NCBI GenBank assembly: GCA_963800405.1
Contig: CAWDBW010000071.1
Location: 557-64,556 of the forward strand
DNA length: 64,000 nucleotides
Direction: 5' to 3'
Origin: an uncultured Acidobacteriota bacterium
GTDB taxonomy: Bacteria; Acidobacteriota; Terriglobia; Terriglobales; Acidobacteriaceae
The notes under the pieces are model-generated. The model did not search any database and was not told the DNA's origin. It saw only the letters and a program-made list of their open reading frames with translations. How positions within the stretch are numbered: position 1 is the stretch's first letter; each line of letters opens with the position of its first letter. The position numbers were made by a program, and so were the translations under genes. This document shows positions 30,843-54,969 of this stretch, piece by piece.

Positions 30843-30887
30843 TGGAGCCGACGAGCGGACTTGAACCGCTGACCTGCCGATTACGAA
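30843..30887. repeat. attL: 45-bp copy of the 3' part of tRNA-Thr (anticodon loop to CCA)
   Basis: tggagccgacgagcggacttgaaccgctgacctgccgattacgaa, identical to 47297-47341. Flanking bases differ. Confidence 0.9.
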
Positions 30888-31009
30888 GTTAGCAGCCACT
30901 ACCCCGCCCCATTAAGATTCATACAGATACGACCCGCCCAGCCGCGTTGAATGGGGACGTTCGGCGTTGGTCGGGGTGGTTTTGTGGGCCACAATGTGGG
31001 CCAGTCTTT

Positions 31010-31222
31010 TTATTTCGGGCTCGCCCAGCGCGGGGTTGTCCTCAACGCCTCAAGTTGAGCATACGTCACGGGCGGCGACGAGAAGGACATGAAATCCTCG
31101 GTCGTGGTCACGACCGCGCGCTCGACCTGCTGAAACAAAGTGACGGCAGCCGTCAGCGTGACGAGCACACTGCCAACCTTCTTCCACAAAGAGGCTTTGC
31201 GACGTTTACGCTGGGGCGTCAT
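31010..31222 (-). CDS. Small protein with one predicted TM helix (island cargo)
   Basis: 70 aa, basic N-terminus MTPQRKRRKASLWKK followed by VGSVLVTLTAAVTLF. Confidence 0.4.
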   Translation of the reverse strand: MTPQRKRRKASLWKKVGSVLVTLTAAVTLFQQVERAVVTTTEDFMSFSSPPVTYAQLEALRTTPRWASPK

Positions 31223-31241
31223 CCCCCGATTCTACACCCGG

Positions 31242-31532
31242 TCACTTCCCCGCGCTGGCGGATTTGCTCTTCTTCTTTCCCTTCGGCGGCACGATAACGG
31301 CCTGCTCGATAAGGACAGTGGAAAGGTCCCCGAAGTCACCAACCCCGATGTGCATTTGTAGGTTATCCAGCGCGCGCACTAAGTCGCCGAGTTGCTCGCC
31401 CAATACACCGCCCTCGTCGTACTCGGGGCGGTCGGTGCCGTACAGCGTCCGCAACAACTCTTCGAGCACTTGGCACGCACGACCAACCTCACGCGCAGCC
31501 ATGTCCTGAACACTCAACTTCTTCTTCGCCAT
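31242..31532 (-). CDS. Hypothetical protein (island cargo), Lys-rich C-terminus
   Basis: 96-aa ORF with an ATG start, 20 nt upstream of the TM-protein gene. Confidence 0.45.
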   Translation of the reverse strand: MAKKKLSVQDMAAREVGRACQVLEELLRTLYGTDRPEYDEGGVLGEQLGDLVRALDNLQMHIGVGDFGDLSTVLIEQAVIVPPKGKKKSKSASAGK

Positions 31533-31614
31533 CGGTGTTCCCTCCAGTTTGTGACGTTAAAAGAGGCGGGCGCGGAGCGGCAAGTTACCGTAGTGTGCAG
31601 AATGGATAAAGTTG

Positions 31615-31670
31615 GGGCCACGGGTGACTTCAGGCGCGTGAGGAAGGCTGGGGTGGGCCGCCGATACCAC
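31615..31670. repeat. 56-bp direct repeat, copy A (partner at 33573-33628, 2 mismatches)
   Basis: gggccacgGgtgacttcaggcgcgtgaggaAggctggggtgggccgccgataccac. Lies 20 nt downstream of the nuclease-like gene stop. Confidence 0.85.
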
Positions 31671-31690
31671 TTCGAAACCGAGCTGATGAC

Positions 31691-32581
31691 TCAGGAGGAT
31701 TGCAGGACCAGAAGTTTCACGTTCACGGTACCGTCCTTTGTCTTTCTCTCGCCCTCCAGGTCCTTCTTCAATCCCTCGGCGTTTCTTATGAGGTGTTGGG
31801 GGTCGTAGACGACGCACCACAGGGCATCGCACTCCGGGTGCTTTCGATAGTGCTCAATGTCGATAATTAGCTCGTTGCCAATCTTCGTGGCGTGGTTCGC
31901 ATCACGCACGAACTTCAGCTCAATCACGAGCCTGTGTGCGGGAAGAAGGAAATCCATCCGCGTGCTGGAGCCAGCCAAGCTGGGTGTGAACTCCTCGGGC
32001 CTGATGTCAGCGACCCACGGGCGCAACAGCGCGTGCAGCAAATCCTGAACGTCATACTCCGTGGAGAAGGTCAGGGCGACCGCGCCTTTCCGCCTTTGCG
32101 TCAACGGATGCATCGCTCTCCGAAGGTTCTTCAAGAGAACCAGCAGCAGCTCGTCGATGTCGCCGGGCTTCCTCGGGCCGCGCGCGCTGGCCGATGCAGG
32201 GTACGCCTCCTCTGGCGGTTGGCCGCTCGGCAACACGCGACCGCCACGGTAGTAGCGAAAGCCGTTCTCCTCTAACACCTTGACCACGCGCGCCCGGTCC
32301 TTCTTCCAGTCGCTGACTGAGTAGTCGTCGTTCGGGTCATCATCGTCCGGTTCGACGTCCATGAACTCTTCGAGGATGTTGCCCAGAACCGTGAGGCTGT
32401 CGACTGCGGGGTCGCTCCCCGCACGAAAAAGCCAATCTTTCCATTTGGTCGCGTGAGAAAGATTCGAGGGTTCGCCGGGTGCGCCCGACGAAACGAACAG
32501 AGCTTCGAGATTTGCGTGGGACCCACGCAGGACGGAGGCGACGGCGGCGCATACACCTCTCGACAATCGAACGTTCGTCAT
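31691..32581 (-). CDS. PD-(D/E)xK nuclease-fold protein with an uncharacterised N-terminal domain (candidate defence/Abi effector)
   Basis: C-terminal domain TEYDVQDLLHALLRPWVADIRPEEFTPSLAGSSTRMDFLLPAHRLVIELKFVRD has the E...D...ExK layout. Start taken at ATG 32581 (MTNVRLSRG...); the ORF is open to 32665. Confidence 0.6.
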   Translation of the reverse strand: MTNVRLSRGVCAAVASVLRGSHANLEALFVSSGAPGEPSNLSHATKWKDWLFRAGSDPAVDSLTVLGNILEEFMDVEPDDDDPNDDYSVSDWKKDRARVVKVLEENGFRYYRGGRVLPSGQPPEEAYPASASARGPRKPGDIDELLLVLLKNLRRAMHPLTQRRKGAVALTFSTEYDVQDLLHALLRPWVADIRPEEFTPSLAGSSTRMDFLLPAHRLVIELKFVRDANHATKIGNELIIDIEHYRKHPECDALWCVVYDPQHLIRNAEGLKKDLEGERKTKDGTVNVKLLVLQSS

Positions 32582-32714
32582 GCTCAGGAGTGATGCTACC
32601 AAACCAGTAGGCTTTACGCCCGGCATTGTGCCCTTAGTAAGTGTGTCTTTCGGTGCCCCGCACACTTACACACGGCACTTGCTTGGGTTTTGGGGCGGAG
32701 TGAACATCCGTCCC

Positions 32715-32999
32715 ATGATGAAAACCAAACAGCAAGCGGGCCGGGTCGGAGGGCAGGCGGTGACGCCTCGCAAATCCGAAGCGGCGCGGGAGAACGGGCA
32801 CCTCGGCGGACGCCCTTGCAAGGCCGCCATTACGTACAGCGAGGCCCGCACGCGGGTACTTGCGCTGGTCACGGACCTGAACACGATGCTGATGGAGCAC
32901 GCGGCCCGGCAGGAAAAGGACCCGACGAATTACGGGTACGCAGGCGACATGAATCACTACGCCGAGTTGCTCGAAGAACTTCTCGGTCGCCGCAAGTAA
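32715..32999 (+). CDS. Small basic protein with a GRVGG...AARENGHLGGRP motif (common in phage/plasmid accessory genes)
   Basis: ATG 32715 (MMKTKQQAGRVGGQAVTPRKSEAARENGHLGGRPCK...). Divergent from the nuclease-like gene. Confidence 0.5.
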   Translation: MMKTKQQAGRVGGQAVTPRKSEAARENGHLGGRPCKAAITYSEARTRVLALVTDLNTMLMEHAARQEKDPTNYGYAGDMNHYAELLEELLGRRK

Positions 33000-33069
33000 C
33001 GCGGGCCACGGGGCTGTTGAAGCAGCACCGTGACCCTTAACCAAGTACCGGGCGCGGAGGCCCGACAAA

Positions 33070-33363
33070 ATGGCTGTCACCAAGCATACCGCACGTCCAA
33101 TTTTCCACTACGTCCTGAAGAACCGCATCGTCGGCGGCGAGGTCTCGCTGCCAATCACGCGCGAAGAGGCGAGGCGGATAATCCGCAAGTGGTCGGTAGC
33201 GTTGCGGCACAGGCAGCGCGGTCACCGTACCCTTTTCCTGCTGGAAGTTCACCGGGGGCGGAAGTGGGACCGCCTGACTCTGGAAACACATCATCACAGA
33301 ACGCGGAAAAGGGTCATGGCGGAGGATTCCGCATGTGCTTCGAAGAAGTGGGTGACGGAATGA
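33070..33363 (+). CDS. Hypothetical basic protein
   Basis: 97-aa ORF. Its stop overlaps the start of the next ORF (ATGA at 33360-33363). Confidence 0.4.
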   Translation: MAVTKHTARPIFHYVLKNRIVGGEVSLPITREEARRIIRKWSVALRHRQRGHRTLFLLEVHRGRKWDRLTLETHHHRTRKRVMAEDSACASKKWVTE

Positions 33364-33509
33364 CCACGCGCGAAACCGTTAACGGAAGGCTGGCGACCGT
33401 CTCTCACCTGACGGAGGCGTGGGTGCCTTGCGCGCCGAAGGACGCTTCCATCGTGAAAGTGGTATTCGATGACGGGGAGGTACTCTTCGGCTTCGTAAAG
33501 GAGCACTGA
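33360..33509 (+). CDS. Hypothetical 49-aa protein, translationally coupled to 33070-33363
   Basis: MTTRETVNGRLATVSHLTEAWVPCAPKDASIVKVVFDDGEVLFGFVKEH. Confidence 0.35.
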   Translation: MTTRETVNGRLATVSHLTEAWVPCAPKDASIVKVVFDDGEVLFGFVKEH

Positions 33510-33572
33510 CGGGTCAGGCAAGCCCCACGGCCTCCGGTTCGCGCCGGGGGCCTTTCCCGTTTTGCGAACGCC

Positions 33573-33628
33573 GGGCCACGTGTGACTTCAGGCGCGTGAG
33601 GATGGCTGGGGTGGGCCGCCGATACCAC
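33573..33628. repeat. 56-bp direct repeat, copy B
   Basis: gggccacgTgtgacttcaggcgcgtgaggaTggctggggtgggccgccgataccac. Ends 3 nt before the stop codon of 33632-34717. Confidence 0.85.
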
Positions 33629-33631
33629 CGC

Positions 33632-34717
33632 TTACGACTTGGTCACCAGCAACGCTTCCTTGTCACCAATCCCGCTCGTGCGGGTCAGCAGAAACAACAC
33701 GGTGTCGCCGTTGCGTGCGGAGTAGGTTCGGTTCGCCTCGCTGACGCGCACGAGGGTGGTTTCGTCCGTGTGATTCCGAAGGTCCAGCGTCGGCGTGATA
33801 ATTCCCTCGCCGTTGCCGTTCGCTTCCAAGCCGGAGATGACTCCCGCGTACACGATGCCGTCGAATACGTGACCGAGGTCCCTGCTGGTGGGGAACAGCG
33901 TGGCCATCTGAGGCGCGGTCAACTGGTCGCCTGCGGAGTTCGCGGACAAGTCAGTCCCGTTAAAGCTTCCACCTCCTCCACCGCCCACGCCGATTGCGGT
34001 CGTGAGGTAGAAGGCTTGCCACAGCAGCGCGCCAACGCCGATGTTGTCACCCGTGGGTCCGCCGAAGTTCGTTTGCAGCGACGAGCTGGTCTCCACCAAC
34101 TGCGACTGCGCACCAATCGTGGCGGTCTTCGCGTTCAGGGTTGCGGTCGCCGCGCCGTCGAGCGTGTAACCAGATGACGTGTTTCCCGTCAGGAGCGCGG
34201 TGTCGGTCGTGAAGAGCGCGCCGACGCCCACGATGAATCCACCGTTGCCTTCCAGATACACGCCGGGGATGATGCTCGCGCCCGATAGCGGCTCGGTGAT
34301 TCCCGTCGCGGGCAGGCTGTAGTTTGCGGTCGATGCCGTGCTCAGCCCGTTCACCTCATAGCACGCGATGCCGACCTGACAGTTGCCTGCGGCTGAAATC
34401 GGCGCGAAGGTGAACGTCACCGATTCCGCTCCCGAGCTGGGCGTGATGGTAAAGACGCCGAGGAGGATGGTTTCATTGTCAGAAGCCGTTGGGTAGATTT
34501 CAACGATGGTCGGCGTCGAGCTGTTGCTTTGCGAATCCGTCACCGTGGCGAAGCCAGAGCCGTTCCCACCAAGGGACGCGCCGATACTGGCTGAGTAATC
34601 CACGGCCTGCACTGCGACGACGATTTTGTTCCCCGCTGTGATGTGCGAGGGGAAGGTTGCGGTAACCGTCGCTGCACCTGTGGCAAACGCGGTCACTTTC
34701 TGAACGATGCTGGACAT
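33632..34717 (-). CDS. Hypothetical Gly/Ser/Thr/Ala-rich protein (possible fibre/receptor-binding-like)
   Basis: 361 aa, beta-rich low-complexity composition with a GGGGGG tract. No recognisable motif. Confidence 0.55.
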   Translation of the reverse strand: MSSIVQKVTAFATGAATVTATFPSHITAGNKIVVAVQAVDYSASIGASLGGNGSGFATVTDSQSNSSTPTIVEIYPTASDNETILLGVFTITPSSGAESVTFTFAPISAAGNCQVGIACYEVNGLSTASTANYSLPATGITEPLSGASIIPGVYLEGNGGFIVGVGALFTTDTALLTGNTSSGYTLDGAATATLNAKTATIGAQSQLVETSSSLQTNFGGPTGDNIGVGALLWQAFYLTTAIGVGGGGGGSFNGTDLSANSAGDQLTAPQMATLFPTSRDLGHVFDGIVYAGVISGLEANGNGEGIITPTLDLRNHTDETTLVRVSEANRTYSARNGDTVLFLLTRTSGIGDKEALLVTKS

Positions 34718-34833
34718 GGTAAGGAAGCCCTCAGTGTCCCCGAAAGGTGTTAACCCCTTGCCGGGGAAAAAGCAGGCAGAGAAGGTCCTGACGAACCCCG
34801 ACGTGGTGGTCGTCTCCGTCCTGCGTTACGAAC

Positions 34834-35802
34834 TCAAGAAGCCTGCGCCTGCGAAGCCCCCGCGCCTGCGGTAGCTGGCCAGCCGTGCTCGGCGCGATAC
34901 CGGGCGATGAAGTCCTCGCGCTCCTTGCGGCGGTGGTAATACCTCCGCTTCTTCTCTGCATCAGCGGCGAGACGGGCACTGACGACGTCGTTCACGCCGG
35001 GCCGCATCACAATAATCTCCATCGTCGCCGGGTCCTGCTGCGGCGTCATCTGCTTGTAGGTCTTGTTGAGGCGGTGAAGAATCGCACGCACGTGCGGCGG
35101 TTTGAATCCGAACATTGCTCCGACGCCGACCGAATCCTGACCAACGTTGTAGGCTTGATAAAGCATCCCAAGGATGACGGCGGGCGCGTTCTCCTGCGTC
35201 AACCGAAGGTCGGTGTCGAGCGTTTCTATTGACCGCCTGAGCACACGCTGGCGGTCACCATCCACGTTCTTCGAAGCCACGAGTTCGTTGCAGAGTTCGT
35301 CCATCACCTTCAGCTTCGCGGGCAGCTTGGCACGCAGATGGTCACACGCGGTCTTCAACCGTTCGGCCTCTGTTCCCGTTGTCGACAGCCGCTGCTTTTT
35401 ACTGAAAGCGCGGGCTTCGAAGTACGCGACCAACACGGCGCGCACGGTCGATTGGTTTCGCGTCCATTCGGGAATGCCACGGCAGAGAGAACGTCTTCCG
35501 TGCCGGGCGGTGGACGTCTGCATGCGGGTGTAGTCCTCGAACGCAATTCCGTTCGAGACGATTTCACCGTCAGCCTCGACGTGAGCAGAGATGGGAACTT
35601 CGTGGCGGCCAAAAAACTGATGTGCTTCCGGTTCCGAACCGTGAGCGGCTGCGGGTGGGCAAAAAGTTATTGGGGTCATCAGAACACTGAGAAACTGTGA
35701 GGGGGTCTCCGCCAGCGCGCGGACAGTTTCTTCACGCGCGCCAACGGAAGGTTGAGAAATTGTTGGGGGCTTTCGGTCGCCCCCGGACCAACTCTTCTGC
35801 AT
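34834..35802 (-). CDS. Hypothetical protein with a possible HTH near residue 230 (GMLYQAYNVGQDSVGVGAMFGFKPPHVRAILHRLNK)
   Basis: 322-aa ORF. ATG 35679 is an alternative start. Confidence 0.5.
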   Translation of the reverse strand: MQKSWSGGDRKPPTISQPSVGAREETVRALAETPSQFLSVLMTPITFCPPAAAHGSEPEAHQFFGRHEVPISAHVEADGEIVSNGIAFEDYTRMQTSTARHGRRSLCRGIPEWTRNQSTVRAVLVAYFEARAFSKKQRLSTTGTEAERLKTACDHLRAKLPAKLKVMDELCNELVASKNVDGDRQRVLRRSIETLDTDLRLTQENAPAVILGMLYQAYNVGQDSVGVGAMFGFKPPHVRAILHRLNKTYKQMTPQQDPATMEIIVMRPGVNDVVSARLAADAEKKRRYYHRRKEREDFIARYRAEHGWPATAGAGASQAQAS

Positions 35803-35923
35803 TCCATCCGCAAGAGTCCCAGAGATGGTCGAGGCACGACCCGCACCGCGTTACCGCGTATGCTGGGTCCCCGCTCGACAACGGGCACGCCCCCAGCTCT
35901 CGCCGGGGGAACGTCGTAAAAAC

Positions 35924-36049
35924 TTATTTGCGGTTCGGGTTCGCGGGCGTCGGCGCGGGCGACTTGAACGGCAAGGGCGGCGCGGGTCGCACGCCGGAGT
36001 TCGGTTGCTGATATCCGTTGTCGGGATTCGGTTCGTTATTGATTTCCAT
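35924..36049 (-). CDS. 41-aa proline-rich micro-protein (paralog of 36192-36317)
   Basis: ATG 36049 preceded by AAGGAGA. MEINNEPNPDNGYQQPNSGVRPAPPLPFKSPAPTPANPNRK. Confidence 0.45.
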   Translation of the reverse strand: MEINNEPNPDNGYQQPNSGVRPAPPLPFKSPAPTPANPNRK

Positions 36050-36191
36050 GACGGAGTCTCCTTTTAATTTTGGGTCCGCAACCAGCCAGCCTCTCGACTT
36101 TGCTGGTTGCGGAGTTATCGCGCGGGGGCTCAGGAGAAAGCGGCCTCCGACTGCCCACGCTTCTTTTTGTCTCAGTCGGTAGACAAGCTTT

Positions 36192-36317
36192 TTATTTCTT
36201 CGGCTGCGGGCGCGCGGGCGCTGGTACGGTCGGCTGCGATTGCGGCCTGCCCCACGGCGGAACCGTCGACGGGTGAACGTTGGGGGTGAGAATGTTGGGG
36301 CGGTTGTCGTCGCTCAT
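36192..36317 (-). CDS. 41-aa proline-rich micro-protein
   Basis: ATG 36317 preceded by GAGGAG. MSDDNRPNILTPNVHPSTVPPWGRPQSQPTVPAPARPQPKK. Confidence 0.45.
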   Translation of the reverse strand: MSDDNRPNILTPNVHPSTVPPWGRPQSQPTVPAPARPQPKK

Positions 36318-36321
36318 GTTG

Positions 36322-36770: not shown

Positions 36771-36772
36771 CG

Positions 36773-37241: not shown

Positions 37242-37724
37242 TTACAGAGGCTTGCTTCCGAAAACCGCCGACATGACGGTGCGATGTCCCGCCCACTTGT
37301 CCTTGCGCTCTTGCTCCTCCTGAGACTTCTTCGCGGCAGCGATTGCGACAGCGTTCGCTTCAGGCGAGAGAGACGCGGCGTCCAAAAATTGCTGCGTGAT
37401 ACTGCGCGGACAGTCGGCTGGCGGTGTATCGAAGAAGAAAGTGTCAGAGCCGACGCGCTTGATGACGGCGACCACTTTCCCGCTCTGGTGGATGCCCCAC
37501 TCGACGCCCGAGACACCTGCGACGGTGTCGTGAGCGTCAGGAACGGTCGCGGTCGCGGCCTGCTCGTTACGCGCGGCCAGCCATTCCTTCGAACCACGCG
37601 CAGGCATGGGCACGGCTTTCGCGGAGCCCTGCGCGATGAGAACCTGAGCAACGTGAGCTGGTAGGTTGGTGATGGTATTGCGGAGAGATGGGTCGGCAAC
37701 GAATTCGGTGTACTGGATTTTCAT
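37242..37724 (-). CDS. Hypothetical protein
   Basis: ATG 37724 (MKIQYTEF...) preceded by GAGGA. Confidence 0.55.
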   Translation of the reverse strand: MKIQYTEFVADPSLRNTITNLPAHVAQVLIAQGSAKAVPMPARGSKEWLAARNEQAATATVPDAHDTVAGVSGVEWGIHQSGKVVAVIKRVGSDTFFFDTPPADCPRSITQQFLDAASLSPEANAVAIAAAKKSQEEQERKDKWAGHRTVMSAVFGSKPL

Positions 37725-37799
37725 ACTGTCCTCATTGAAAAAGGATTTATCGTTCAAGGCTGTATTCCGCCTCAGTCTTACAACCGCGTGTGACGGCAT

Positions 37800-38024
37800 C
37801 TACTGGACGAACCGTGACGCAGACTTCGCCACTTGCAACGGATACTTTTTCATCGCCTCAACGAAGGCGGCAGAGTGTTCGAGGATGGTCTTCGCCGCGT
37901 CCATAGGAACAAGCGGCTCCAGACCCAGCTCGTTGCACGCGTCGTTGACGGCGCAGATTGCCGCGATGAGTTTTTCCTCTTTTGTGACCGACCACTTCGG
38001 CTTCTTCTCTTTCGGTTTCCTCAT
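37800..38024 (-). CDS. Hypothetical protein
   Basis: 74 aa, 4-nt overlap with the terS stop. Confidence 0.5.
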   Translation of the reverse strand: MRKPKEKKPKWSVTKEEKLIAAICAVNDACNELGLEPLVPMDAAKTILEHSAAFVEAMKKYPLQVAKSASRFVQ

Positions 38025-38575
38025 TGGATTCCTTCCGCTGTGACCAGCAGCCTGTCAAAGTCTTCTTCGGGGTCCTCGGCGGGCGGCTTGACCGCTTCGG
38101 GTTCGCGCGAAAGCAAAGCAGCATCCTCGGTCGACAGTGCGGGCTGTTCATTTTTCGGGGGCTTCGTCAGCTTGCGGCTGACCGGGGTCGCACTCAACTG
38201 CACGAGGTACGCGCGCATCTGGGACTCCAGCCTTGCGGCAATTTTCGACGCTGGGGATTCCTCAACTTTTATGTGCTCGTTGTTGTTCTTGTCCAGCCAC
38301 GAAGTTTCACTCAGCGGGTTCGCGGCGGCCATCGCTTCGACCTTGCGCCAGCGGGCGTAGATGCGAACGTAGATTTCCAGCGTCGATGCGTCGGCCTTCG
38401 TCAGTTGCCTGCGCTTGCAGAGCTTCGGCACGAGACGTCGCCACTCAGCCTCGGCGACAGGGCACAAATCCGCGGGCATTTTCGGTCGGCCACTGGCGAA
38501 CTCGGGTTCGGGTGACCACGCGGGCTTGGTGCCGTTCAAAACGTGCGTCGCTATGTCCTTGCGGTCGGTCGGCAT
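38021..38575 (-). CDS. Phage terminase small subunit, P27 family
   Basis: ...GRPKMPADLCPVAEAEWRRLVPKLCKRRQLTKADASTLEIYVRIYARWRKVE...LESQMRAYLVQLSATPVSR matches the P27 TerS pattern as I recall it. Confidence 0.75.
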   Translation of the reverse strand: MPTDRKDIATHVLNGTKPAWSPEPEFASGRPKMPADLCPVAEAEWRRLVPKLCKRRQLTKADASTLEIYVRIYARWRKVEAMAAANPLSETSWLDKNNNEHIKVEESPASKIAARLESQMRAYLVQLSATPVSRKLTKPPKNEQPALSTEDAALLSREPEAVKPPAEDPEEDFDRLLVTAEGIQ

Positions 38576-38790
38576 CAGCGCGTCTCCTGATTGGGCGCGA
38601 ACAGGACAGGCTGGCGGGTCACCACGACCTTGCGCTGGTCCGGGGTCAGCGTGTCCATGAACGCATTGTGGCGAAGGGCACGCCTGATAACTTCAGCTAC
38701 GGGCGCACCGCTTTCGGCAGCGATGCCCTTGATGCGCGCGGCGAGGGCGTCCTCGGCGTGAAAAACAAATCTGGTTTTCGTGGTAGCCAC
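38575..38790 (-). CDS. Ribbon-helix-helix (CopG/Arc-like) protein
   Basis: 71 aa. TRFVFHAEDALAARIKGIAAESGAPVAEVIRRAL. Overlaps the terS start by 1 nt. Confidence 0.55.
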   Translation of the reverse strand: MATTKTRFVFHAEDALAARIKGIAAESGAPVAEVIRRALRHNAFMDTLTPDQRKVVVTRQPVLFAPNQETR

Positions 38791-39331
38791 TGGTGGGCCT
38801 CCTGTCTCTGTTGCCCACAGGTGTGACGGCCTCCATAAGCTGCTTATCGGGTCATCAGGCGCGCCCCAGCAAAGGGGCCGGATGTCAGGCCGATGTCACC
38901 CTGAAGGCGCAGGGCTGGGCGGGCAAGGGCCAAGGAAGCGGTCCTAAAGGGACCGGGGGGTCTCGCTATTCATGCGGGCGTGTCTCTCTAAGAGCGGCGC
39001 GCGCGGTATTGCGCGAGGGCGTGGGAAAAACATCCCGCCTACCCCCTACATAACACGGGGGTTAGCTCGGTCGGGGGCATCCAAGGCGCAACACGTAACT
39101 TGCTGAGTCGTTGGGAGTTAGGTCAGGTGATGAAGCAAAGGCGAAGGGTCGCTTGGGCGCGCCGGGGATTATGTCAACTGACAAAATGAGGCTGGATTAT
39201 GCTCGGTTCGCTGCGGAATACGACCAACGAAAGGGCCGACGCCGGGCCACGTTTGACGACACGTGGGCTCCTCACGCACGCGCCGGGGCGAAGGGTCACG
39301 TTGGTTTGCTTATCGCCCACGCGGTCACTGT

Positions 39332-39341
39332 GGGGGGGGGG
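39332..39341. repeat. G10 homopolymer tract inside the 630-bp non-coding gap between the HNH and RHH/terS genes
   Basis: ctgtGGGGGGGGGGttcac. Confidence 0.9.
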
Positions 39342-39422
39342 TTCACTGGTTATCGTGTGATTGGGTGTTGCTGGGTCTCTCTGCTCTACTTTCGTTTTTT
39401 TGACCTTACGCGGGCGCGCGGG

Positions 39423-39878
39423 TCACAGGTCTGGGATGCCTGACAGCAGCGCTGCGATGTCATCAGCGTTTTGTGGAATTAATTCGTTCAGTTTGCGAAC
39501 GTCAATGGTGGATGACTTGTACTGCTGTCCATCCTCACCTGTGACAGCAATGTGGTCTTCTTTTCCTGCCTTCGGTGCGTTGCCAAATCCTCGGTCATAA
39601 GTAGCGGTCGCCGTGTTGTGGCATGGGGCGCACAATCCCCTCAAATTTTCGGGCGACGAAAAAAGCACCCAACTCACCGTGCCGTCAGGCGCGATGAAAG
39701 GCTTGATGTGGTCGACGACCGCGCTCGCTCGCTTTTGACAAATTCTGCAAATGGGGTCGCGTTGAAGAATGAAGACACGTAATTGCTTCCGCCAGAAGGC
39801 TCGGTTCTCCCACGGATGTTTGCACGTCCGGGGAACCATCGGGCCGCCTTCGTACTCTTGCCAAGTGTCGTTGCTCAC
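39423..39878 (-). CDS. HNH endonuclease
   Basis: CRICQKRASAVVDHIKPF...NLRGLCAPCHN. Confidence 0.8.
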   Translation of the reverse strand: MSNDTWQEYEGGPMVPRTCKHPWENRAFWRKQLRVFILQRDPICRICQKRASAVVDHIKPFIAPDGTVSWVLFSSPENLRGLCAPCHNTATATYDRGFGNAPKAGKEDHIAVTGEDGQQYKSSTIDVRKLNELIPQNADDIAALLSGIPDL

Positions 39879-40242: not shown

Positions 40243-40470
40243 CTATTTCCTCGGCCAAGGCAGACTTTCGATTTCGCTCTCGCCGCGAAGCATGGCAGCA
40301 ACGACTCGATGCGCGCCATCGATGAGCAATAAGTGACCAACATCCTCAACGTAAATCGGCGGGCATGTTGACGCGGGAAGTTCGGCGTACTTTTTGCAAA
40401 CGTCCGGGTCACGCATTAAGGCTTCGAGGATGTGGATGGAATTTCGCGCGACCAGCTCTGCGATTTTCAT
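40243..40470 (-). CDS. Small ParB-N-terminal-domain-like protein (tentative)
   Basis: ...PPIYVEDVGHLLLIDGAHRVVAAMLRG resembles the ParB/Srx DGxHR core. Confidence 0.4.
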   Translation of the reverse strand: MKIAELVARNSIHILEALMRDPDVCKKYAELPASTCPPIYVEDVGHLLLIDGAHRVVAAMLRGESEIESLPWPRK

Positions 40471-41130: not shown

Positions 41131-41166
41131 CCACGTACAACGTGACGCACGGCGGTATTCGCGGCC

Positions 41167-41340
41167 TTAGCACGCGCCCCCGCTCTTCAGCGTTCTCTGC
41201 CACTTCGGTACGGATTCGAGGAGGGCCTTCGTCTCGATAAACGAATCGATGACTTCGGGAGCGACTCCCAACTCGGTAAGGCGGTCTTCGAGTTCTTCGG
41301 GGTCGGAGGGCAGTAACTCTGTCGTCTTTTCCTTAAGCAT
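41167..41340 (-). CDS. Hypothetical acidic 57-aa protein
   Basis: MLKEKTTELLPSDPEELEDRLTELGVAPEVIDSF... The ATG overlaps the end of the upstream ORF. Confidence 0.35.
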   Translation of the reverse strand: MLKEKTTELLPSDPEELEDRLTELGVAPEVIDSFIETKALLESVPKWQRTLKSGGAC

Positions 41341-41614
41341 TTTGTTCTCTGCTTTCTCGCCTCGCGCGGAGGCGTTCCTCGTAGCGGTCTTCCGCTGTTT
41401 CCCTGATGTTGGGCAATGGCGTAGGAAACAGGCGCTCGACCGTGTGTTTGTATGAGCAGCCCTTGCCGCACGGACCCTGCGATACATCTCTGACGAATTC
41501 CTCGCTCCCAAGTTCGATGTGAGTCGTGGCGTGACAACGGCTGACACTTCCGTAGTCACCGCTCCCGTGGATTTCTGCGGTCGGATATAACTTACGGGCG
41601 TGCGTGTAGCTCAC
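41333..41614 (-). CDS. Hypothetical Cys-containing protein
   Basis: 93 aa with a GTG start. Confidence 0.4.
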   Translation of the reverse strand: MSYTHARKLYPTAEIHGSGDYGSVSRCHATTHIELGSEEFVRDVSQGPCGKGCSYKHTVERLFPTPLPNIRETAEDRYEERLRARRESREQNA

Positions 41615-41765
41615 GGGTTTCCTCTTCCTGCATTTTCCGAACTGCGCGGCGGATGACCGCGCCGACCGATTCGTGACCGCGCGCGGCGGCCTGCTCCAGC
41701 CAGACGGTCAGGTCGGCGGGCATGTACGTCACGACGGGCTTGTTCGGTGTCGACACGGTGTTCAT
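41592..41765 (-). CDS. 57-aa ribbon-helix-helix protein (below the ORF-track length cutoff)
   Basis: MNTVSTPNKPVVTYMPADLTVWLEQAAARGHESVGAVIRRAVRKMQEEETRELHARP. It is the first gene after a ~190-bp gap. Confidence 0.45.
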   Translation of the reverse strand: MNTVSTPNKPVVTYMPADLTVWLEQAAARGHESVGAVIRRAVRKMQEEETRELHARP

Positions 41766-41959
41766 ACTGGCAGGGAGGTGTTACGAGGGCCGGGCTGCGG
41801 AAAATGAAACGGCACCGTTCTCACGCACGGGGTTCGGTGCCATTTCGGAAGGACTCAAGGGGTCTCAGAATCGGCTTGTGCCGTTTTGTGCCAGTACGTT
41901 TTCAGGTGATACAAAACACGCCGTTTAAAATTCGTCGGTCCTCTCATAAGGAAAAAGTG

Positions 41960-42247
41960 TCACTTCGTTTGGTCGTCAGAGTCATGTTGGCACCCCGTGA
42001 CACCGGGGCTTGCTCCCGCGCGGCGGGTGAACCGCGCGGGCAGAACAAACGCCTGAACCCACAGTCCTTCGGGGCCTTGGGACCAGCCAGCTTCACTCAG
42101 TATGCGGCGGACAACAGTCACCCATAAACCGATTCCTCGTTCCCTGCACAAAACCGTCGCATCTATCCTTGGGTTCTTGTGGATGATTCTTTCCATCCTT
42201 TTCAAGTAAAACTTGTCCGCCTTTGCTCTCGCCCTTTTGTGCTTCAT
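41960..42247 (-). CDS. Small HTH-like protein
   Basis: MKHKRARAKADKFYLKRMERIIHKNPRIDATVLCRERGIGLWVTVVRRILSEAGW. Confidence 0.4.
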   Translation of the reverse strand: MKHKRARAKADKFYLKRMERIIHKNPRIDATVLCRERGIGLWVTVVRRILSEAGWSQGPEGLWVQAFVLPARFTRRAGASPGVTGCQHDSDDQTK

Positions 42248-44256
42248 CAGCGCTTCACCTTTCTTACAACTTTTACGCGCCCGTTCTTGCTGAGTTCGAT
42301 GTCACCGCAAACCTCCAGAGAAGCCAGCGCCCGGTTGACGATGGACGGACCCCAGTCGATGACTACGTGCGTTGAGCGGAACATGTCGCGCTGGGAAATC
42401 CAGCCATCACTGTCGCCTTGATGGTCGGCCAAGTAGTCAGTCACCTTGCAGGCAACAATCGCCTCGGGGTTCTTGCCGGGGTTCGGCTTGAACCTTTTCC
42501 GCACATTTATCTGGTAGGCAATGAAAGCCTTCATCGGCCCGAGGTCCGCGCCGTGAAGCGTGCGGCGACCGTCCATCGAAGCCGCGATGAGGGCGGCGCG
42601 CAGGCCCAGCTCAAGCAGGCGACTGTCAGCCGCTGTCAACTTCAACTCCTCCGCGATGCGGTCACGGGCATCCCAGACATCGTTGTCGATTTCCACGGGG
42701 ACCGGGCGTTCGGTTCCGAACACCTCCTCCGGCTCGGCGAGGTCGGGCGTCCTCAGCGCGGGCTCTCCAGTAAACGCGCGGTATTTGTAGGCGTACCCTG
42801 ACGGCGCAACTCCGAAGATGAACCTGTCGTAGAAACCACCCGTGGTTGCCGCGCCGAAGAGGTCGTTGAACATCTCGTCAACCACGCCTCCCGCAACTGA
42901 GAGACGGCAGTTGAAATTGACCTTCGCGTTCTTCGCCAGAATGAGGTCCTGCTGGTCCTCGTAGAAGATGGTGTTCAGAATCGTTGCGAACGCAGAGCCT
43001 TGAATCGTCAGCTTGAGAAGCAGGTGGGCCAGCTCATCCGTGAAGTAAAGCCGTGACGCCCCACCGACGTCGCCTATCTCTTTCGTCAGGCCCTCACCCG
43101 AACCCGCTTTCAGTTTGAGGAGTGCGGGGACCTTAAGGTCGAGCAGCCGAATAGCGTAGTCGAACGCGCTGGTCTTGCCCGTGCCCTTCCCACCGACGAG
43201 CGCGACGAAAAGATTGGTGCGATTGCTCGGGGTCGGGCTGTGCGGAACCAAAACGCTGGCTACCGAGAGGAGCGCGGGCCACGAGAATGCAATCGGAAAC
43301 GCGCCCATGCGCTCTTTGCAAAGCCGTCCCAGCCAGCCGTCAAGAACCTCCTCGGGCATGTCTTCGATGCCGACCTTCTGCTCGGCGATAAGAAGCTTCA
43401 CGGCGTCGTGTACTTTATCGAGTGACCACACGCCGTTCTTGTCCGGCTCGATGGTCACCACCTGAGTGCAGCACCGTTGAAGCCGCGCTTCGACGTCCGA
43501 GTCTCTGAACGTCAGCACGACAGGCTTCCATGACAGCGGCCCGGTCACGTCCTCGGGTCCTTTCAAGCCGAGAACCGCCTTGCGCGCCCGAGGGTCCATG
43601 ACGTACACGCAGTTGTAGGCGTACCAGCGGGTGATTTCTCCTCGGCGCAGGCGGTCGCTTATTTGCATGTCGAGGTACAACTGGCGCGCGTCGCCGTTGT
43701 CCATGACAACGAAGACGGGTTCGTTCGCATCGTCCGGGACGTTGCTTCCGTCAATCCAAGTCGTCGTGGAAGTTTTCGCGGCGGCGTCACGCAGTCGCTC
43801 GATGAGACTGCCGACGCCCACAGGCCCGAGGTTACGGGTCAGCGATTCCCAGCCCGGCTCCGTTGTGGGTGGAGGCGTTGGGAACATCTGAGTGCATCCT
43901 GCCTTCGGCTCACAGTAGCACTTGCGACCGCATTCTCCGTGGTCGGGGCAGAGAGTACCGTCGTCAACGTGCGTGTACACATCAGTGGCGGTGAAGGAAC
44001 AGCCGGGCAGCAGGTCTTGAATACGCCGAGCAGCTTCCTCCTGAAGAGCCAGCGGAACACACGGCTCGCCTGTGGGGAACTTGCTGTTTGTCAGGAGCCA
44101 GCGAAGGCCCACCTTCCCACGGTCGCCGGGCGTTCCCAGCCATAGGTGGTGATAAGGGCAAAAGTCTGCTGGTTGCTTGCGGGTGAGTTCGAGCTGTGCC
44201 TCTTGGTAGAGTGCTTCGATGGTCGGGCTGGTTTTGAAGAGTTCGTCTAACGTCAT
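42247..44256 (-). CDS. P-loop NTPase, putative replication initiator/helicase (DUF3987 or D5-like, tentative) with an N-terminal Cys cluster
   Basis: 669 aa. Walker A LVGGKGTGKTS. Walker-B-like RLYFTDELAHL. CPDHGECGRKCYC near the N-terminus. Confidence 0.6.
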   Translation of the reverse strand: MTLDELFKTSPTIEALYQEAQLELTRKQPADFCPYHHLWLGTPGDRGKVGLRWLLTNSKFPTGEPCVPLALQEEAARRIQDLLPGCSFTATDVYTHVDDGTLCPDHGECGRKCYCEPKAGCTQMFPTPPPTTEPGWESLTRNLGPVGVGSLIERLRDAAAKTSTTTWIDGSNVPDDANEPVFVVMDNGDARQLYLDMQISDRLRRGEITRWYAYNCVYVMDPRARKAVLGLKGPEDVTGPLSWKPVVLTFRDSDVEARLQRCCTQVVTIEPDKNGVWSLDKVHDAVKLLIAEQKVGIEDMPEEVLDGWLGRLCKERMGAFPIAFSWPALLSVASVLVPHSPTPSNRTNLFVALVGGKGTGKTSAFDYAIRLLDLKVPALLKLKAGSGEGLTKEIGDVGGASRLYFTDELAHLLLKLTIQGSAFATILNTIFYEDQQDLILAKNAKVNFNCRLSVAGGVVDEMFNDLFGAATTGGFYDRFIFGVAPSGYAYKYRAFTGEPALRTPDLAEPEEVFGTERPVPVEIDNDVWDARDRIAEELKLTAADSRLLELGLRAALIAASMDGRRTLHGADLGPMKAFIAYQINVRKRFKPNPGKNPEAIVACKVTDYLADHQGDSDGWISQRDMFRSTHVVIDWGPSIVNRALASLEVCGDIELSKNGRVKVVRKVKR

Positions 44257-44546
44257 TGATTCTCCTTTTTGCTGCGAAGTTTTTGTTTCTCACTCCACGC
44301 GATGAACTCCTCGCGTGTCATCTCTGGGAACACCGCAACAACACGCGGCGCATCGCCCGGCTTCTGGTCGAGGATGGCGTCGATGAACACCTTCGGCATC
44401 GATTCCATCCGCGCGTTCACGAGAACCTCGGCCTGCGCCAGCAGTCGTTCGGCCCTGCGAAGCAGAATCCCGCGCACGACGTTGTTCGCCGTCAGCGAGT
44501 GTTCCAATACGCTTCGGGCCTCCGTGGTTAACGCGCGAGCGCTCAT
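44253..44546 (-). CDS. Hypothetical protein
   Basis: ATG 44546 overlaps the upstream stop (ATGA); 4-nt overlap with the helicase-like gene. Confidence 0.5.
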   Translation of the reverse strand: MSARALTTEARSVLEHSLTANNVVRGILLRRAERLLAQAEVLVNARMESMPKVFIDAILDQKPGDAPRVVAVFPEMTREEFIAWSEKQKLRSKKENQ

Positions 44547-44890
44547 GCGTTCCCTGCCGAGTTCAGTATCTGAATGTGCTCGTCGCACAAATAGACGACC
44601 GTGCCCTCAAACTTTCCCCACAAAGCCTGCTGACGAATTGCGGGCCTGCCGCATGGAAACATCGCGACCTTCGGGTCACCGTCAATCTCTCCGCAGCGAT
44701 GACGGAACCTGTGCGGCCAAGGTGCGAGTACTGACTGCATGATGCGCCGTGGCGATTCCTCGCCGTCGAACCTCACAAGGTACGGCGCGCCGTCCTCTTC
44801 GAACGGGCCGCCCTCGATAGTGCCCGGCATGTTGTACGGTTCGTATCCGTCGTCGAGCAAGCCGACGCGGTCACCAGTTTTGTATGCCAT
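44543..44890 (-). CDS. Hypothetical protein
   Basis: 115 aa, MAYKTGDRVGLLDDGYEPYNMPGTIEGG... Confidence 0.5.
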   Translation of the reverse strand: MAYKTGDRVGLLDDGYEPYNMPGTIEGGPFEEDGAPYLVRFDGEESPRRIMQSVLAPWPHRFRHRCGEIDGDPKVAMFPCGRPAIRQQALWGKFEGTVVYLCDEHIQILNSAGNA

Positions 44891-44910
44891 CTTTTTAGTT
44901 CTCCTTTTTG

Positions 44911-45261
44911 TCAGTTCGTGAAAGCAAGGTGGAGTTGGCTGTCGGCGGGGACCCAGCCGGGTTGGTCGTCAGCCCAAGCGAGAAACTTTCCGTCGTGAAA
45001 GAGCGGCCAGCCTCCGTCACCCGGAAAGTCGCCGTAGCCCTCTGTGAGTGGCGTGGGCTGCCCACCTTTGGCAATCCACTCCTCGGCTTCTTTGCGTGAG
45101 TGGAACCGCTCGTTGTACACGTATTCGTCAATCGCTGACGCGATTCCGAACAGGCCGTTGGCGTACGCGAATACCTTCAGCTTGTCGTGGCCCTCGTGCA
45201 CCACCGTTATCTCTTCCGGCTGTTCTGGAAGACCATCGATAATGCGGTCGACGCAGCTCAT
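44911..45261 (-). CDS. Hypothetical protein
   Basis: 116 aa. The start overlaps the upstream stop. Confidence 0.5.
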   Translation of the reverse strand: MSCVDRIIDGLPEQPEEITVVHEGHDKLKVFAYANGLFGIASAIDEYVYNERFHSRKEAEEWIAKGGQPTPLTEGYGDFPGDGGWPLFHDGKFLAWADDQPGWVPADSQLHLAFTN

Positions 45262-45413
45262 CGGGCACCTGCCTTGCTGGTTGGCTTGCTGAACGTGGGA
45301 CTCACGGGCCGGAACTGGAGCAGTATCGCTTCCGGGTTTTCGCTGAGTTCGGCAGCGCGCACGAAACCTTCTTCCACGCCCTGAGCGAACGCGACCTTCT
45401 CTTTCTTCGTCAT
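45258..45413 (-). CDS. 51-aa hypothetical protein (below the ORF-track cutoff)
   Basis: MTKKEKVAFAQGVEEGFVRAAELSENPEAILLQFRPVSPTFSKPTSKAGAR. Both ends are coupled to neighbours by ATGA overlaps. Confidence 0.35.
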   Translation of the reverse strand: MTKKEKVAFAQGVEEGFVRAAELSENPEAILLQFRPVSPTFSKPTSKAGAR

Positions 45414-45634
45414 CACCTTCCTCCTTTTGTCAGCCGTTTGGCTGTGTTGTTACCGCGACTCAAAAACCATTCGAGCAACGTGTTCTTCTCAAAGCGGACG
45501 TAGCGCCCGATGCGGAAGTGCGGAATCTGGTCGTGGTCACGGGTCCTGCACTTTTCGGTCACCCAGCCGGGCTTTACCCGCAGTAGCTTCGCGGCCTCAG
45601 CCGCTGTGAGAATTTCGGTAGCGGGAGTGTTCAT
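45413..45634 (-). CDS. Excisionase/AlpA-type helix-turn-helix DNA-binding protein
   Basis: ILTAAEAAKLLRVKPGWVTEKCRTRDHDQIPHFRIGRYVRFEKNTLLEWF. Confidence 0.7.
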   Translation of the reverse strand: MNTPATEILTAAEAAKLLRVKPGWVTEKCRTRDHDQIPHFRIGRYVRFEKNTLLEWFLSRGNNTAKRLTKGGR

Positions 45635-45885
45635 AGTCCAACCCCGACCGCAAGCAGAGACTTACCTTCGAGAACGAGACTTCGGTGACCACGCGCGAAC
45701 GGGCGTCTGATGGACGGCTTAATGACGAGTCCACATCCGCAGGCACAGCGTGTGTGAATAGTCAGACCTTCGGCTGCCGCCATGCGCTCCATACGGTGCT
45801 GGCGGAAATTGAACTGACGCGCGGCGGCGTAGCGACGGGCGCGTGCGTTACTATTCTTCGGGTTAAGCGGGCACACGGGTATCAC
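45631..45885 (-). CDS. Hypothetical Cys-rich protein, first gene of the minus-strand chain
   Basis: 84 aa, 4-nt overlap with the excisionase-like gene. Confidence 0.4.
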   Translation of the reverse strand: MIPVCPLNPKNSNARARRYAAARQFNFRQHRMERMAAAEGLTIHTRCACGCGLVIKPSIRRPFARGHRSLVLEGKSLLAVGVGL

Positions 45886-46135
45886 CTCTCAAAATGACGC
45901 GAACCGTGTTACCCGTCACGGCCTATTAAATCGTTACATTGGCTTTTCGTTCGCGGGGTTTTCTTGGGTGTATCTCCGTGAGTTGCCGAGTTTGAGGTCT
46001 TTATCGGGGGGACCTTCGCCTGTTCTTTCCGAGAGTTGTCTTTGGGCGTCTGCAACCCGATGATTCGACGGCAAAAATAATTCTTGAGACGTGCCCACCT
46101 ACCCTTCGCTTTTCCACGGTAAACTTGCGGGCGCG

Positions 46136-47248
46136 ATGCAGCGAGGCTCAATAAGGAAGAGGCGCGGGTCGTGGACCCTACGGTACTGGACGGTCGAGGT
46201 CGGCCCGAACGGAACCCTGCGGCGACGTCAGGTTTCAACCACGCTGGCCAAGGTCAGTGCGGAGTATCCCACGGAGCGTTCGGTCCAAACGAAAGCCGAC
46301 AAGATTCTGGCTCCGTACAACGCGAACGAGGTCGCCGCTGAGGGCGCGATGACCGTCCAGCAGTTCGCCGAGCAATATTTCCTGCCTTGGGTGAAGGAGC
46401 GAAAGCGAGCCAGCACACATCGCTTCTACTCGAACACCCATCAGGTCCACGTCACATCGACGGTCGGCAACATCAGGCTCCGTGACTTCCGCACGGTGGA
46501 CGCGCAGCGCGTTCTCGACGGCATCCAACTCTCACACGGGACGTTGCAGCGAATCAAAACCTGCATGAGCGCGCTCTTCAGTTATGCCGTTCGGCTCGGC
46601 TTCGTTGAATTCAATCCGATACGCGAGACGAAGGTGGAGGGCAGGCGGTCCACGTTTGACGGTCACGCCTACTCGCTCGATGATGTGCTCTGGATGCTGG
46701 AGAAGCTTCCCGAACCGTCGAAGACCGTCGTCGGGGTCGCCGCGTTCGCGGGCCTGCGGGAGGCGGAAATTCGCGGCCTTCGCTGGGAAGACTACGACGG
46801 GCGGCTTATTCACGTTCGCCGCTCTCTCTGGCGCACCCACGTCGCCGAAACCAAGACTGTGGCGTCAGAGGATAGTGTGCCCGTCATTCGCCCGCTGAAG
46901 AAGTTGCTCGACGCTCACAAGCGGCGGGATGGACGCGGGCCTTGGATTTTCGCCGGGCCGAAGAAGGGGTTCTCGCTCAGCCTCGACAACCTGTCACGCC
47001 GGGAAATCAAGCCTGCCATCGGCGACCGCTGGCGGGGTTGGCACTCTTTCAGGCGCGGCCTCGGCACCATCCTTTACGGCCTCGGGGTTCCAGCCGAGAC
47101 TGCGAAGGTGATTCTCCGGCACAGTGCGGTTGCGGTCACGCAGAAGCATTACATCAAGCTGAAGTCCGCCAAGGAGGGCCGCGCGGCCATGAACAAGCTG
47201 GAAAAAGCGATTGCGAAAAGTGGGCCTGTGGTGGGCCGCAAAAAGTAG
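46136..47248 (+). CDS. int: Tyrosine recombinase (phage integrase family)
   Basis: N-terminus MQRGSIRKRRGSWTLRYW (arm-binding type). C-terminus ...LREAEIRGLRWEDY...GWHSFRRGLGTILY...ILRHSAVAVTQKHY (R..HxxR..Y). The ORF is open from 46091. Confidence 0.9.
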   Translation: MQRGSIRKRRGSWTLRYWTVEVGPNGTLRRRQVSTTLAKVSAEYPTERSVQTKADKILAPYNANEVAAEGAMTVQQFAEQYFLPWVKERKRASTHRFYSNTHQVHVTSTVGNIRLRDFRTVDAQRVLDGIQLSHGTLQRIKTCMSALFSYAVRLGFVEFNPIRETKVEGRRSTFDGHAYSLDDVLWMLEKLPEPSKTVVGVAAFAGLREAEIRGLRWEDYDGRLIHVRRSLWRTHVAETKTVASEDSVPVIRPLKKLLDAHKRRDGRGPWIFAGPKKGFSLSLDNLSRREIKPAIGDRWRGWHSFRRGLGTILYGLGVPAETAKVILRHSAVAVTQKHYIKLKSAKEGRAAMNKLEKAIAKSGPVVGRKK

Positions 47249-47296
47249 CGGGCCTGCACGAGACTCGCGCAAACCCGCATGGATACAAGCGATTTC

Positions 47297-47341
47297 TGGA
47301 GCCGACGAGCGGACTTGAACCGCTGACCTGCCGATTACGAA
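47297..47341. repeat. attR core (within tRNA-Thr)
   Basis: Identical to 30843-30887. Confidence 0.9.
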
Positions 47342-54955: not shown

Positions 54956-54969
54956 GCCTCAGAAGCTCG

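Follow-up and report, generated by a model that had tools for sequence, protein, structure and literature searches.

A tRNA-Thr island in an uncultured Acidobacteriaceae bacterium as a candidate PICI-like phage satellite of a Terriglobia lineage

What kind of mobile element carries an integrase, a putative replication protein and a small terminase of its own, but no recognisable gene for a capsid, a portal or a tail? This question is raised by a stretch of 64,000 nucleotides (nt), hereafter the window, from an uncultured soil bacterium of the Acidobacteriaceae (Acidobacteriota; Terriglobia; Terriglobales; GenBank assembly GCA_963800405.1, contig CAWDBW010000071.1, positions 557 to 64,556), in which 16.45 kb are bracketed by two copies of a 45-nt sequence. 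An earlier reading of the same DNA, made from the letters alone (the original prediction), proposed that this 16.5-kb island is a phage satellite of the type known as phage-inducible chromosomal islands (PICIs). Our analysis supports that proposal. We consider the island, with a probability of roughly 60%, to be a PICI-like phage satellite, reduced further than any other member of a new acidobacterial (Terriglobia) lineage: capsid, portal and large terminase (TerL) genes were not found in it, and about seven diverged lineages repeat the same layout.

Phage satellites are drivers of gene transfer and bring with them defences against phages. Nearly all those catalogued so far come from Proteobacteria, Firmicutes and some Actinobacteria. 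A family in Terriglobia would extend their range to one of the dominant phyla of soil, the Acidobacteriota, about whose phages little is known. In the study that introduced the SatelliteFinder scheme, more than 99.9% of PICIs belonged to Proteobacteria or Firmicutes (PMC10085698). No paper linking PICIs or other phage satellites with Acidobacteria turned up in the literature searched, which agrees with the earlier remark that such elements are undescribed in this phylum.

The borders of the island can be read from its insertion site, as originally proposed. The window has a sole tRNA gene, a tRNA-Thr(CGT) identified by ARAGORN and confirmed by Rfam, which matched nothing else in the window (coordinates of all main features are collected in Table 1). 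A repeat search of the window found the 3' part of this tRNA again at the far end of the island as a perfect direct repeat, which on the tRNA strand covers everything from the anticodon loop (TTCGTAA) up to the terminal CCA. Such a pair of perfect 45-mers within 64 kb is no chance event, and the distal copy is identical at all 45 positions although it lies outside tRNA selection. A tyrosine integrase adjoins the tRNA; its R..HxxR..Y residues are readable in the translation, and it is 51-58% identical to the integrases of five related loci (L082, L086, L088, L089, L092). A terminal integrase and bounding attachment (att) repeats, part of the SatelliteFinder PICI core, are therefore present. The island has a G+C content of about 0.60 against 0.53-0.59 in its flanks, which consist of ordinary Acidobacteriota genes, and a domain search found no phage genes in the rest of the window. 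The island is present at 100% identity in Logan ERR10755936, the source sample. An island-supplied hairpin with a 14-bp stem and a following T-run (47248-47278) separates the stop codon of the integrase gene from the 3' end of the tRNA and probably acts as a terminator for both.

Table 1. Main features of the island and its borders (window coordinates; L numbers denote related loci; aa, amino acids; HTH, helix-turn-helix; RHH, ribbon-helix-helix)
Feature	Position	Strand	Evidence or remark
Distal att core	30843-30887	-	repeats the last 45 nt of the tRNA, from anticodon loop to CCA, without mismatch
56-nt direct repeat	copy 1 31615-31670; copy 2 33573-33628		96% identical; brackets a 1.9-kb cassette
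DpnII/MboI-type restriction-endonuclease-domain protein	31691-32665	-	PF18742 7e-44; candidate defence cargo
361-aa strand-rich orphan	33632-34717	-	two shuffling modules; cargo, or possibly a fibre/receptor-binding protein
HTH322, conserved helical protein, 322 aa	34834-35802	-	C-terminal HTH-like motif; 10 homologues
Coiled-coil/collagen-repeat/coiled-coil protein, 149 aa	36322-36771	-	Collagen 1e-3; tail-fibre PHROGs 1e-7 across G-X-Y repeats only
Peptidase_S78 prohead-protease relic, 137 aa	36773-37186	-	C-terminal ~90 aa kept; catalytic His and Ser regions deleted (alignment)
p160, conserved ~160-aa protein	37242-37724	-	alignment with L082, L091, L101, L176, L178
Conserved 74-aa protein after TerS	37800-38024	-	95% identical to L091, 88% to L176
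Small terminase TerS, P27/Terminase_4	38021-38575	-	Pfam 1e-15; phrog_83 1e-21
RHH protein	38575-38790	-	RHH_1 2.6e-4; 1-nt overlap with TerS start
Non-coding HNH-RHH/TerS spacer, 632 bp	38791-39422		candidate cos/pac, operator and promoter; conserved blocks 38835-38989, 39241-39306
HNH endonuclease of packaging type	39423-39878	-	phrog_2323 2e-13; PF01844 6e-4
Rep, 669-aa P-loop (DUF3987-type) helicase-like putative replication initiator	42247-44256	-	Walker A GGKGTGKTS; DUF3987 weak, E=0.01
Conserved 116-aa protein	44911-45261	-	68% identical to L082 9651-10004
HTH_17 protein, Xis/AlpA-like excisionase or activator	45413-45634	-	PF12728 7e-8; phrog_66, phrog_1840 excisionase
First gene of minus-strand operon, 84 aa	45631-45885	-	54% identical over 48 aa to L087 ORF; ATGA overlap with next gene
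Tyrosine integrase	46091-47248	+	PF00589 1e-8; convergent with tRNA
tRNA-Thr(CGU)	47297-47372	-	ARAGORN and Rfam; 3' 45 nt (47297-47341) is the integrase-proximal att core

All plausible open reading frames (ORFs) of the island were searched against Pfam, PHROGs, NCBIfam and PADLOC. Besides the integrase and two plus-strand ORFs, the island holds 27 genes on the minus strand, somewhat fewer than the 30 or so first counted; the chain is compact, as described, with nine overlapping junctions, seven of them four-nt ATGA/GTGA overlaps and two one-nt TGATG overlaps. Near its start stands the HTH_17 protein, whose excisionase/AlpA-like assignment was correct; it is conserved in all relatives and, as a member of the AlpA/Xis family, counts as the regulation module of the SatelliteFinder scheme (an alpA, merR or stl homologue), whether it acts as a regulator or as an excisionase. 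The P-loop replication protein of the original prediction does have a Walker A motif, and its role in replication is suggested by the DUF3987 match together with domain fusions in homologues, several of which have precomputed PF13148 matches or combine the same C-terminal half with Prim-Pol/primase or DnaB_N domains. We found no primase domain in Rep itself, and a sequence-profile search against the PDB returned nothing meaningful for it. Its 57 homologues all come from Acidobacteriota-type genomes or metagenomes, and the few with a named source belong to Candidatus Acidoferrum or Terriglobales.

The genes for DNA packaging are likewise as foreseen, with both the P27-type TerS and the HNH endonuclease recovered by family searches. 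TIGR01558 also matches TerS at 2.4e-10, but with 40.4 bits it falls under the 45.6-bit cut-off. TerS is 94% identical to its counterpart in L176, 85% to that in L178 and 28-37% to those in L082, L087 and L089, and HNH is 53% identical to the HNH protein of L082. L082 and L178, too, have an RHH gene ahead of TerS. This was one of two RHH proteins originally proposed; the other (41592-41765) stays below threshold (RHH_1 E=0.012). The phage homologues of HNH lie at genome ends, adjoining cos. In phages such as phi644-2, a P27 TerS is followed directly by TerL, portal, protease and major capsid protein (MCP), with HNH at the opposite end of the genome; the order HNH, spacer, TerS in the island would therefore correspond to a circularised cos junction. 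No other non-coding stretch of the island is as long as the spacer. In its two conserved blocks, identity to L176 reaches 83% and 88%, compared with 78% in the adjoining coding DNA; the spacer is partly conserved in L082, and a spacer of about 600 bp occupies the same place in L082 and L087. These features make it a candidate cos/pac site and operator. Inside one of the two blocks, some 90 bp upstream of the RHH-TerS operon, the minus strand carries an 11-nt tandem repeat, TGACATC(C)GGCC (38876-38898), which may serve as operator for the RHH protein or as a binding site for TerS.

Does the island hide genes for a virus particle? None of its ORFs matches TerL, portal, MCP, tail or lysis families in Pfam or PHROGs, and tblastn with the TerL, portal, protease and MCP of phage phi644-2 and of relatives gave nothing below E=0.1. 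The original prediction named three products, those of the 361-aa, HTH322 and p160 genes, as examples in which capsid, portal or TerL folds might hide, and we saw no sign of one there. For HTH322, the AlphaFold (AF2) model has an all-helical core at residues 110-255, with a predicted local distance difference test (pLDDT) score of about 90, ending in an HTH-like motif. A Foldseek search of this model against PDB and BFVD gave nothing below E=0.07, the weak matches being KorA and sigma-70 region 4 with no capsid among them, and a PDB sequence-profile search gave nothing meaningful; the model suggests that HTH322 is probably a regulator. For p160 there was no family match in Pfam or PHROGs and no PDB match by sequence profile. 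The single-sequence structure model of the 361-aa protein was unusable (pLDDT 36), and homology makes a capsid fold in it unlikely. The absence of TerL, portal, capsid and tail genes claimed originally is thus borne out by profile searches, tblastn and one structure model. The claim that a protease is lacking as well holds for function only, since an overlooked gene beside the collagen-like ORF, whose limits we set as in Table 1, is a relic of a Peptidase_S78 gene.

Measured against the SatelliteFinder scheme, the gene set has, if the putative Rep is counted, four of the five PICI core components and no forbidden one, a combination classed there as "Type B" (PMC10085698). The small terminase is one of the four, and Rep would be the primase-replicase component. 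Components counted as forbidden in PICIs (tail, holin, portal, head-tail connector or adaptor) are absent by Pfam, PHROGs and tblastn. The component that is lacking is a gene for capsid morphogenesis or size redirection: no ORF gave a Ccm- or Cpm-type match in Pfam or PHROGs, and p160, the S78 relic and the collagen-like gene are at best speculative candidates for such a role.

The same backbone is found in about ten diverged relatives from Terriglobia metagenomes, at least four of them at the same tRNA-Thr site. Single-protein scans of IMG/VR with Rep and TerS found no close relatives; alignment-based scans did find relatives. An identical tRNA-Thr(CGU) adjoins L082, L088, L089 and L090, and a fragment of the same tRNA lies at the start of L086, which marks tRNA-Thr(CGU) as an integration hotspot. 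The att repeats of the relatives lie outside the compared loci, so that their element sizes are lower bounds. The capsid-less relatives (L082/L083/L100 from Candidatus Acidoferrum, at the same tRNA-Thr site; L084 from Terriglobales; L086; L087; L091; L176/L177; L178/L179) share one layout: integrase, HTH_17, Rep or another replication module, HNH, a spacer of about 600 bp, RHH and TerS, followed by a small ORF, p160, a Peptidase_S78 protein of 236-341 aa, the collagen-like protein, an HTH322 homologue and cargo. In these roughly seven lineages no TerL, portal or MCP was found, and their ORFs are intact at 28-94% aa identity to the window.

Relatives at a greater distance, with the same Rep and TerS families, do carry head genes. 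L088 and L089 have Phage_capsid and Phage_portal proteins; L092, an IMG/VR uncultivated virus genome of 15.8 kb, has an MCP, S78, a head-tail adaptor (phrog_40) and phrog_778; and L101 has TerL (phrog_9, 5e-120). The gene order of phi644-2 indicates which pieces have been lost in the lineage. Sequence comparison thus leads us to regard the lineage as descended from capsid-forming ancestors and as spanning forms that resemble capsid-forming PICIs (cf-PICIs) as well as capsid-less ones, most of which retain the prohead protease. Capsid-plus-portal, protease-only and capsid-gene-free forms within one Rep/TerS lineage make up a natural series, in which one can ask how capsid-forming and capsid-stealing satellites interconvert and which head genes persist longest. 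In the capsid-forming relatives (L088 386-461, L089 49-124, L090 32-107), the tRNA-Thr(CGT) is complete and its orientation towards the integrase is the reverse of that in the window and L082, and the contigs tend to end shortly beyond it, which suggests att identity across the whole tRNA together with repeat-induced assembly breaks. L176, the relative with the closest TerS, has a replication module of a 220-aa and a 310-aa protein (915-2910) and no 669-aa Rep; replication and packaging modules therefore shuffle independently. Insertion sequence (IS) transposases of the IS110 family (L084 13187-14254) and the IS1595 family (L178 3417-4373) lie between the replication region and the RHH-TerS operon, which indicates that some family members are decaying.

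The block that follows TerS is where the window departs from its relatives. The start of p160 corresponds to M26 of a longer ORF (37242-37799), as judged from the alignment with its five counterparts, and its position is constant, between TerS (or TerL/HNH) and the S78 protease. In the window this protease is reduced to a relic that gives no S78 Pfam match; over the ~90 aa kept at its C-terminus, identity to the corresponding end of the S78 proteins of L091 and L176 is 50-55%. The ORF of the relic is uninterrupted, starts with an ATG of its own and has an AGGAGA motif upstream. The collagen-like protein, 69% identical to that of L091, occurs in capsid-less and capsid-forming relatives alike, and HTH322 has homologues in L082, L084, L086, L087, L091, L092 and L176. 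Two side observations concern the same block in relatives. A 166-nt repeat in L082 (14382-14547 and 17976-18141, 81% identical) represents two paralogous genes for Zn-ribbon/HNH_3-like proteins, one upstream of TerS and the other upstream of the HTH322 homologue, and L086 carries a tRNA-Leu(TAA) (9333-9416) between the collagen-like gene and the HTH322 homologue.

Could the island simply be what is left of a complete temperate tailed phage after deletion of its structural arm? The protease relic, the TerL, portal and MCP genes of distant relatives and the tail-fibre matches of the collagen-repeat protein would fit such an origin, yet those matches cover the G-X-Y repeats only, and apart from the S78 relic the island holds neither the modules of a complete or defective tailed prophage nor their pseudogene remnants. 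Among some twelve relatives with genomic context, none has tail-tube, tape-measure, baseplate or lysis genes; the sole match in the tail category is phrog_778, "tail assembly protein", beside the head-tail adaptor in L092. Several relatives sit on contigs of just 12-18 kb, though the elements may extend beyond them. A layout without TerL, portal and MCP that recurs with intact ORFs in about seven lineages, at 30-60% aa identity, argues for selection rather than random deletion and against one-off prophage decay, which leaves this origin very unlikely. An even less probable account makes the island an integrative, mobilisable defence island apart from phage packaging, with TerS and HNH co-opted as DNA-binding and nuclease proteins, for example in regulation or defence. 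It would accommodate the match of the distal nuclease cargo to a PADLOC model, the lack of a known helper and the TIGR01558 score under the curated cut-off. The arrangement of HNH, spacer, RHH and TerS, however, mirrors phage cos junctions, relatives have inherited TerS together with protease, MCP, portal and TerL, and no relaxase or type IV secretion system domains were found with Pfam or PHROGs.

The satellite interpretation has to face several observations that weigh against it, and some of them feed a third account, in which the window holds a recently disabled, decaying satellite copy that has lost an essential function (the S78 core and adjacent genes), has become immobile and persists as a defence or cargo island. 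The catalytic core of S78 is missing in the window copy and kept by all close relatives: the nearest packaging modules, those of L176, L178 and L091, all retain an S78 protein of 249-250 aa, from which it follows that the internal deletion is recent and specific to the window. The genes for a 74-aa and an HNH_3-like protein that L091 and L082 carry between the collagen-like and HTH322 genes are also lacking, and the corresponding 520 bp of the window (35803-36321) are nearly empty. The copy may accordingly be degenerating or disabled, as the IS insertions attest for two relatives. On the other side, the genes for integrase, HTH_17, Rep, HNH, RHH, TerS, p160, the collagen-like protein and HTH322 are without exception intact, the relic is no frameshifted pseudogene, the unselected distal att core has not diverged at all, and PICIs are not known to need a protease in general. 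We hold a disabled copy to be rather unlikely, yet the strongest rival of the satellite reading.

Further points against an active satellite concern mobility, replication and the helper. A search of genome contigs with the apiosidase-like neighbour gene found no syntenic empty attB; its best genomic relative, 71% identical, belongs to a metagenome-assembled genome of an uncultured Acidobacteriaceae bacterium (L002) that has no tRNA nearby, so that the empty site that the original prediction asked for did not come to light. No circular junction was found either. The function of Rep is suggested by a weak family match and by domain fusions, and nothing convincing in the way of an origin or iterons was seen near it. 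The helper prophage sought by the original prediction was likewise not identified: searches of INPHARED phages with TerS and HNH and of IMG/VR with a TerS alignment gave no candidate, relatives reaching at most 33-43% identity and the closest phage TerS 27-33%.

How does the island compare with known satellites? It is most like PICIs, namely the Gram-negative AlpA-type ones and cos-type Staphylococcus aureus pathogenicity islands (SaPIs) such as SaPIbov5, in its size class (10-18 kb), its site-specific integrase and att repeats, an integrase divergent from a single long operon, an HTH protein of AlpA/Xis type, a putative helicase for replication, a TerS of its own, the lack of structural and lysis genes, accessory or defence cargo at the distal end and a putative reliance on an HNH/cos packaging pathway. 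That pathway is known for SaPIbov5 and for HK97-type helpers. Unlike PICIs, the island shows no detectable sequence relationship past generic domains, belongs to Acidobacteriota, encodes its own HNH and has no recognised homologue of Ccm, CpmAB, Ppi or Rpp; nor are p160, S78 or its relic, the collagen-like protein and HTH322 of this lineage known from described PICIs. HNH and serine protease genes are nevertheless present in some PICIs (PMC10085698).

With cf-PICIs the link runs through the relatives L088, L089, L092 and L101, which pair integrase, xis, Rep and TerS with a hallmark MCP, portal, protease, head-tail adaptor or TerL. The window has the same integrase, xis, Rep and TerS families and a protease relic, but lacks MCP, portal, TerL and head-tail adaptor and so falls outside the definition of a cf-PICI; judged by its genes, it looks like a reductive derivative of a cf-PICI-like element. 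P4-like satellites share the integrative habit, a similar size, an AlpA-like regulator, a large putative replication protein of the primase/helicase type and a defence hotspot. In contrast to them, no ORF of the island matches Sid, Psu, Delta, Epsilon or the alpha primase in PHROGs or Pfam, and P4 is not known to encode a TerS or an HNH and lives in another host clade. Mycobacterial phiRv1/phiRv2-like elements, PICI-like according to SatelliteFinder, are also small, integrated, found outside the classic PICI hosts and detected by gene set alone. They differ in that their sequences are unrelated, they carry capsid and protease genes and their recombinase is of another type, that of phiRv1 being a serine recombinase.

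If the island is a PICI-like satellite, how would it move? We infer that it depends on a helper, excises and is packaged. A tailed helper phage, HK97-like and cos-type, would trigger the operon; the integrase and the HTH_17 protein would excise the island, and Rep would replicate the excised form. The island's TerS would then recognise a cos/pac site in the spacer and recruit the TerL of the helper, with HNH helping to cut cos as it does in HK97-type phages and cos-type SaPIs, and the 16.5-kb genome would be packaged into capsids and tails made by the helper.

A more daring idea concerns the genes after TerS. In combination, p160, S78 with its variable C-terminal extension, the collagen-like trimeric protein and HTH322 might form a new module for hijacking helper capsids. 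The satellite's protease-scaffold would enter and re-programme the HK97-type procapsid of the helper, for example towards small capsids for a 16-kb genome, the collagen-like fibre would decorate the particle, and the S78 remnant of the window, C-terminal and putatively capsid-targeting, would serve as a non-catalytic scaffold or decoy. We regard this as speculative and doubtful; if true, a stepwise transition from capsid-forming to capsid-stealing would be recorded within a single Rep/TerS family.

As with the cargo of known satellites, the distal end of the island acts as a hotspot at which genes are exchanged. Its DpnII/MboI-type protein matches the PADLOC model Aga_Helical-REase at 4e-26 over the restriction-endonuclease domain only, and probably serves in anti-phage defence, to judge from its nuclease domain. 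Identity between elements is far higher here than in the backbones. The DpnII/MboI-domain gene is 88% identical in aa to its counterpart in L082 (20537-21418), where the backbone is at about 55%, and the 361-aa gene matches L091 at 95% in DNA and 98% in protein (region 33455-34793 against L091 4675-5987), where neighbouring genes are at 61-70%; for DNA, backbones are at 70-78%. This disparity indicates recent exchange of cassettes among co-occurring elements, and the swapped cassettes are a place to seek acidobacterial defence genes. The 361-aa protein has only 23 relatives among 1.84 billion representatives; its two modules also occur separately, and relatives combine the N-module with CarboxypepD_reg, CHB_HEX_C or Ig domains in one protein.

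The cassette bracketed by the 56-nt repeats consists of the DpnII/MboI-domain gene and the two plus-strand ORFs (32580-32999 and 33070-33363), and a third copy of the repeat follows the 361-aa gene in L091 (5814-5869). The repeat may be a recombination joint for cargo cassettes; a role as terminator was rejected for want of a stable fold. The two plus-strand ORFs run antisense to the main operon and have no family match in Pfam, NCBIfam or PADLOC, and the second is 47% identical to an ORF of L082; they could be a toxin-antitoxin-like pair.

Some smaller points concern the annotation of the chain and the host DNA around it. ORF 41167-41559 was dropped in favour of 41333-41614 by homology to L082, and the ParB-like protein of the original prediction (ORF 40243-40470) resembles ParB at the level of motifs only, having no Pfam match even at E<=5. 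A scan for sigma-70 promoters and terminators gave no more sites than shuffled sequence. The flanking genes encode a Trans_reg_C-TPR regulator, CarboxypepD_reg/OMP_b-brl_4 receptors and glycoside hydrolases. On the tRNA side, the host flank at 47781-58521 resembles a glycan-utilisation cluster, with an apiosidase-like glycoside hydrolase with DUF5060, a phosphoesterase/SGL protein, a DUF5054 protein and a CarboxypepD_reg-OMP_b-brl_4 receptor.

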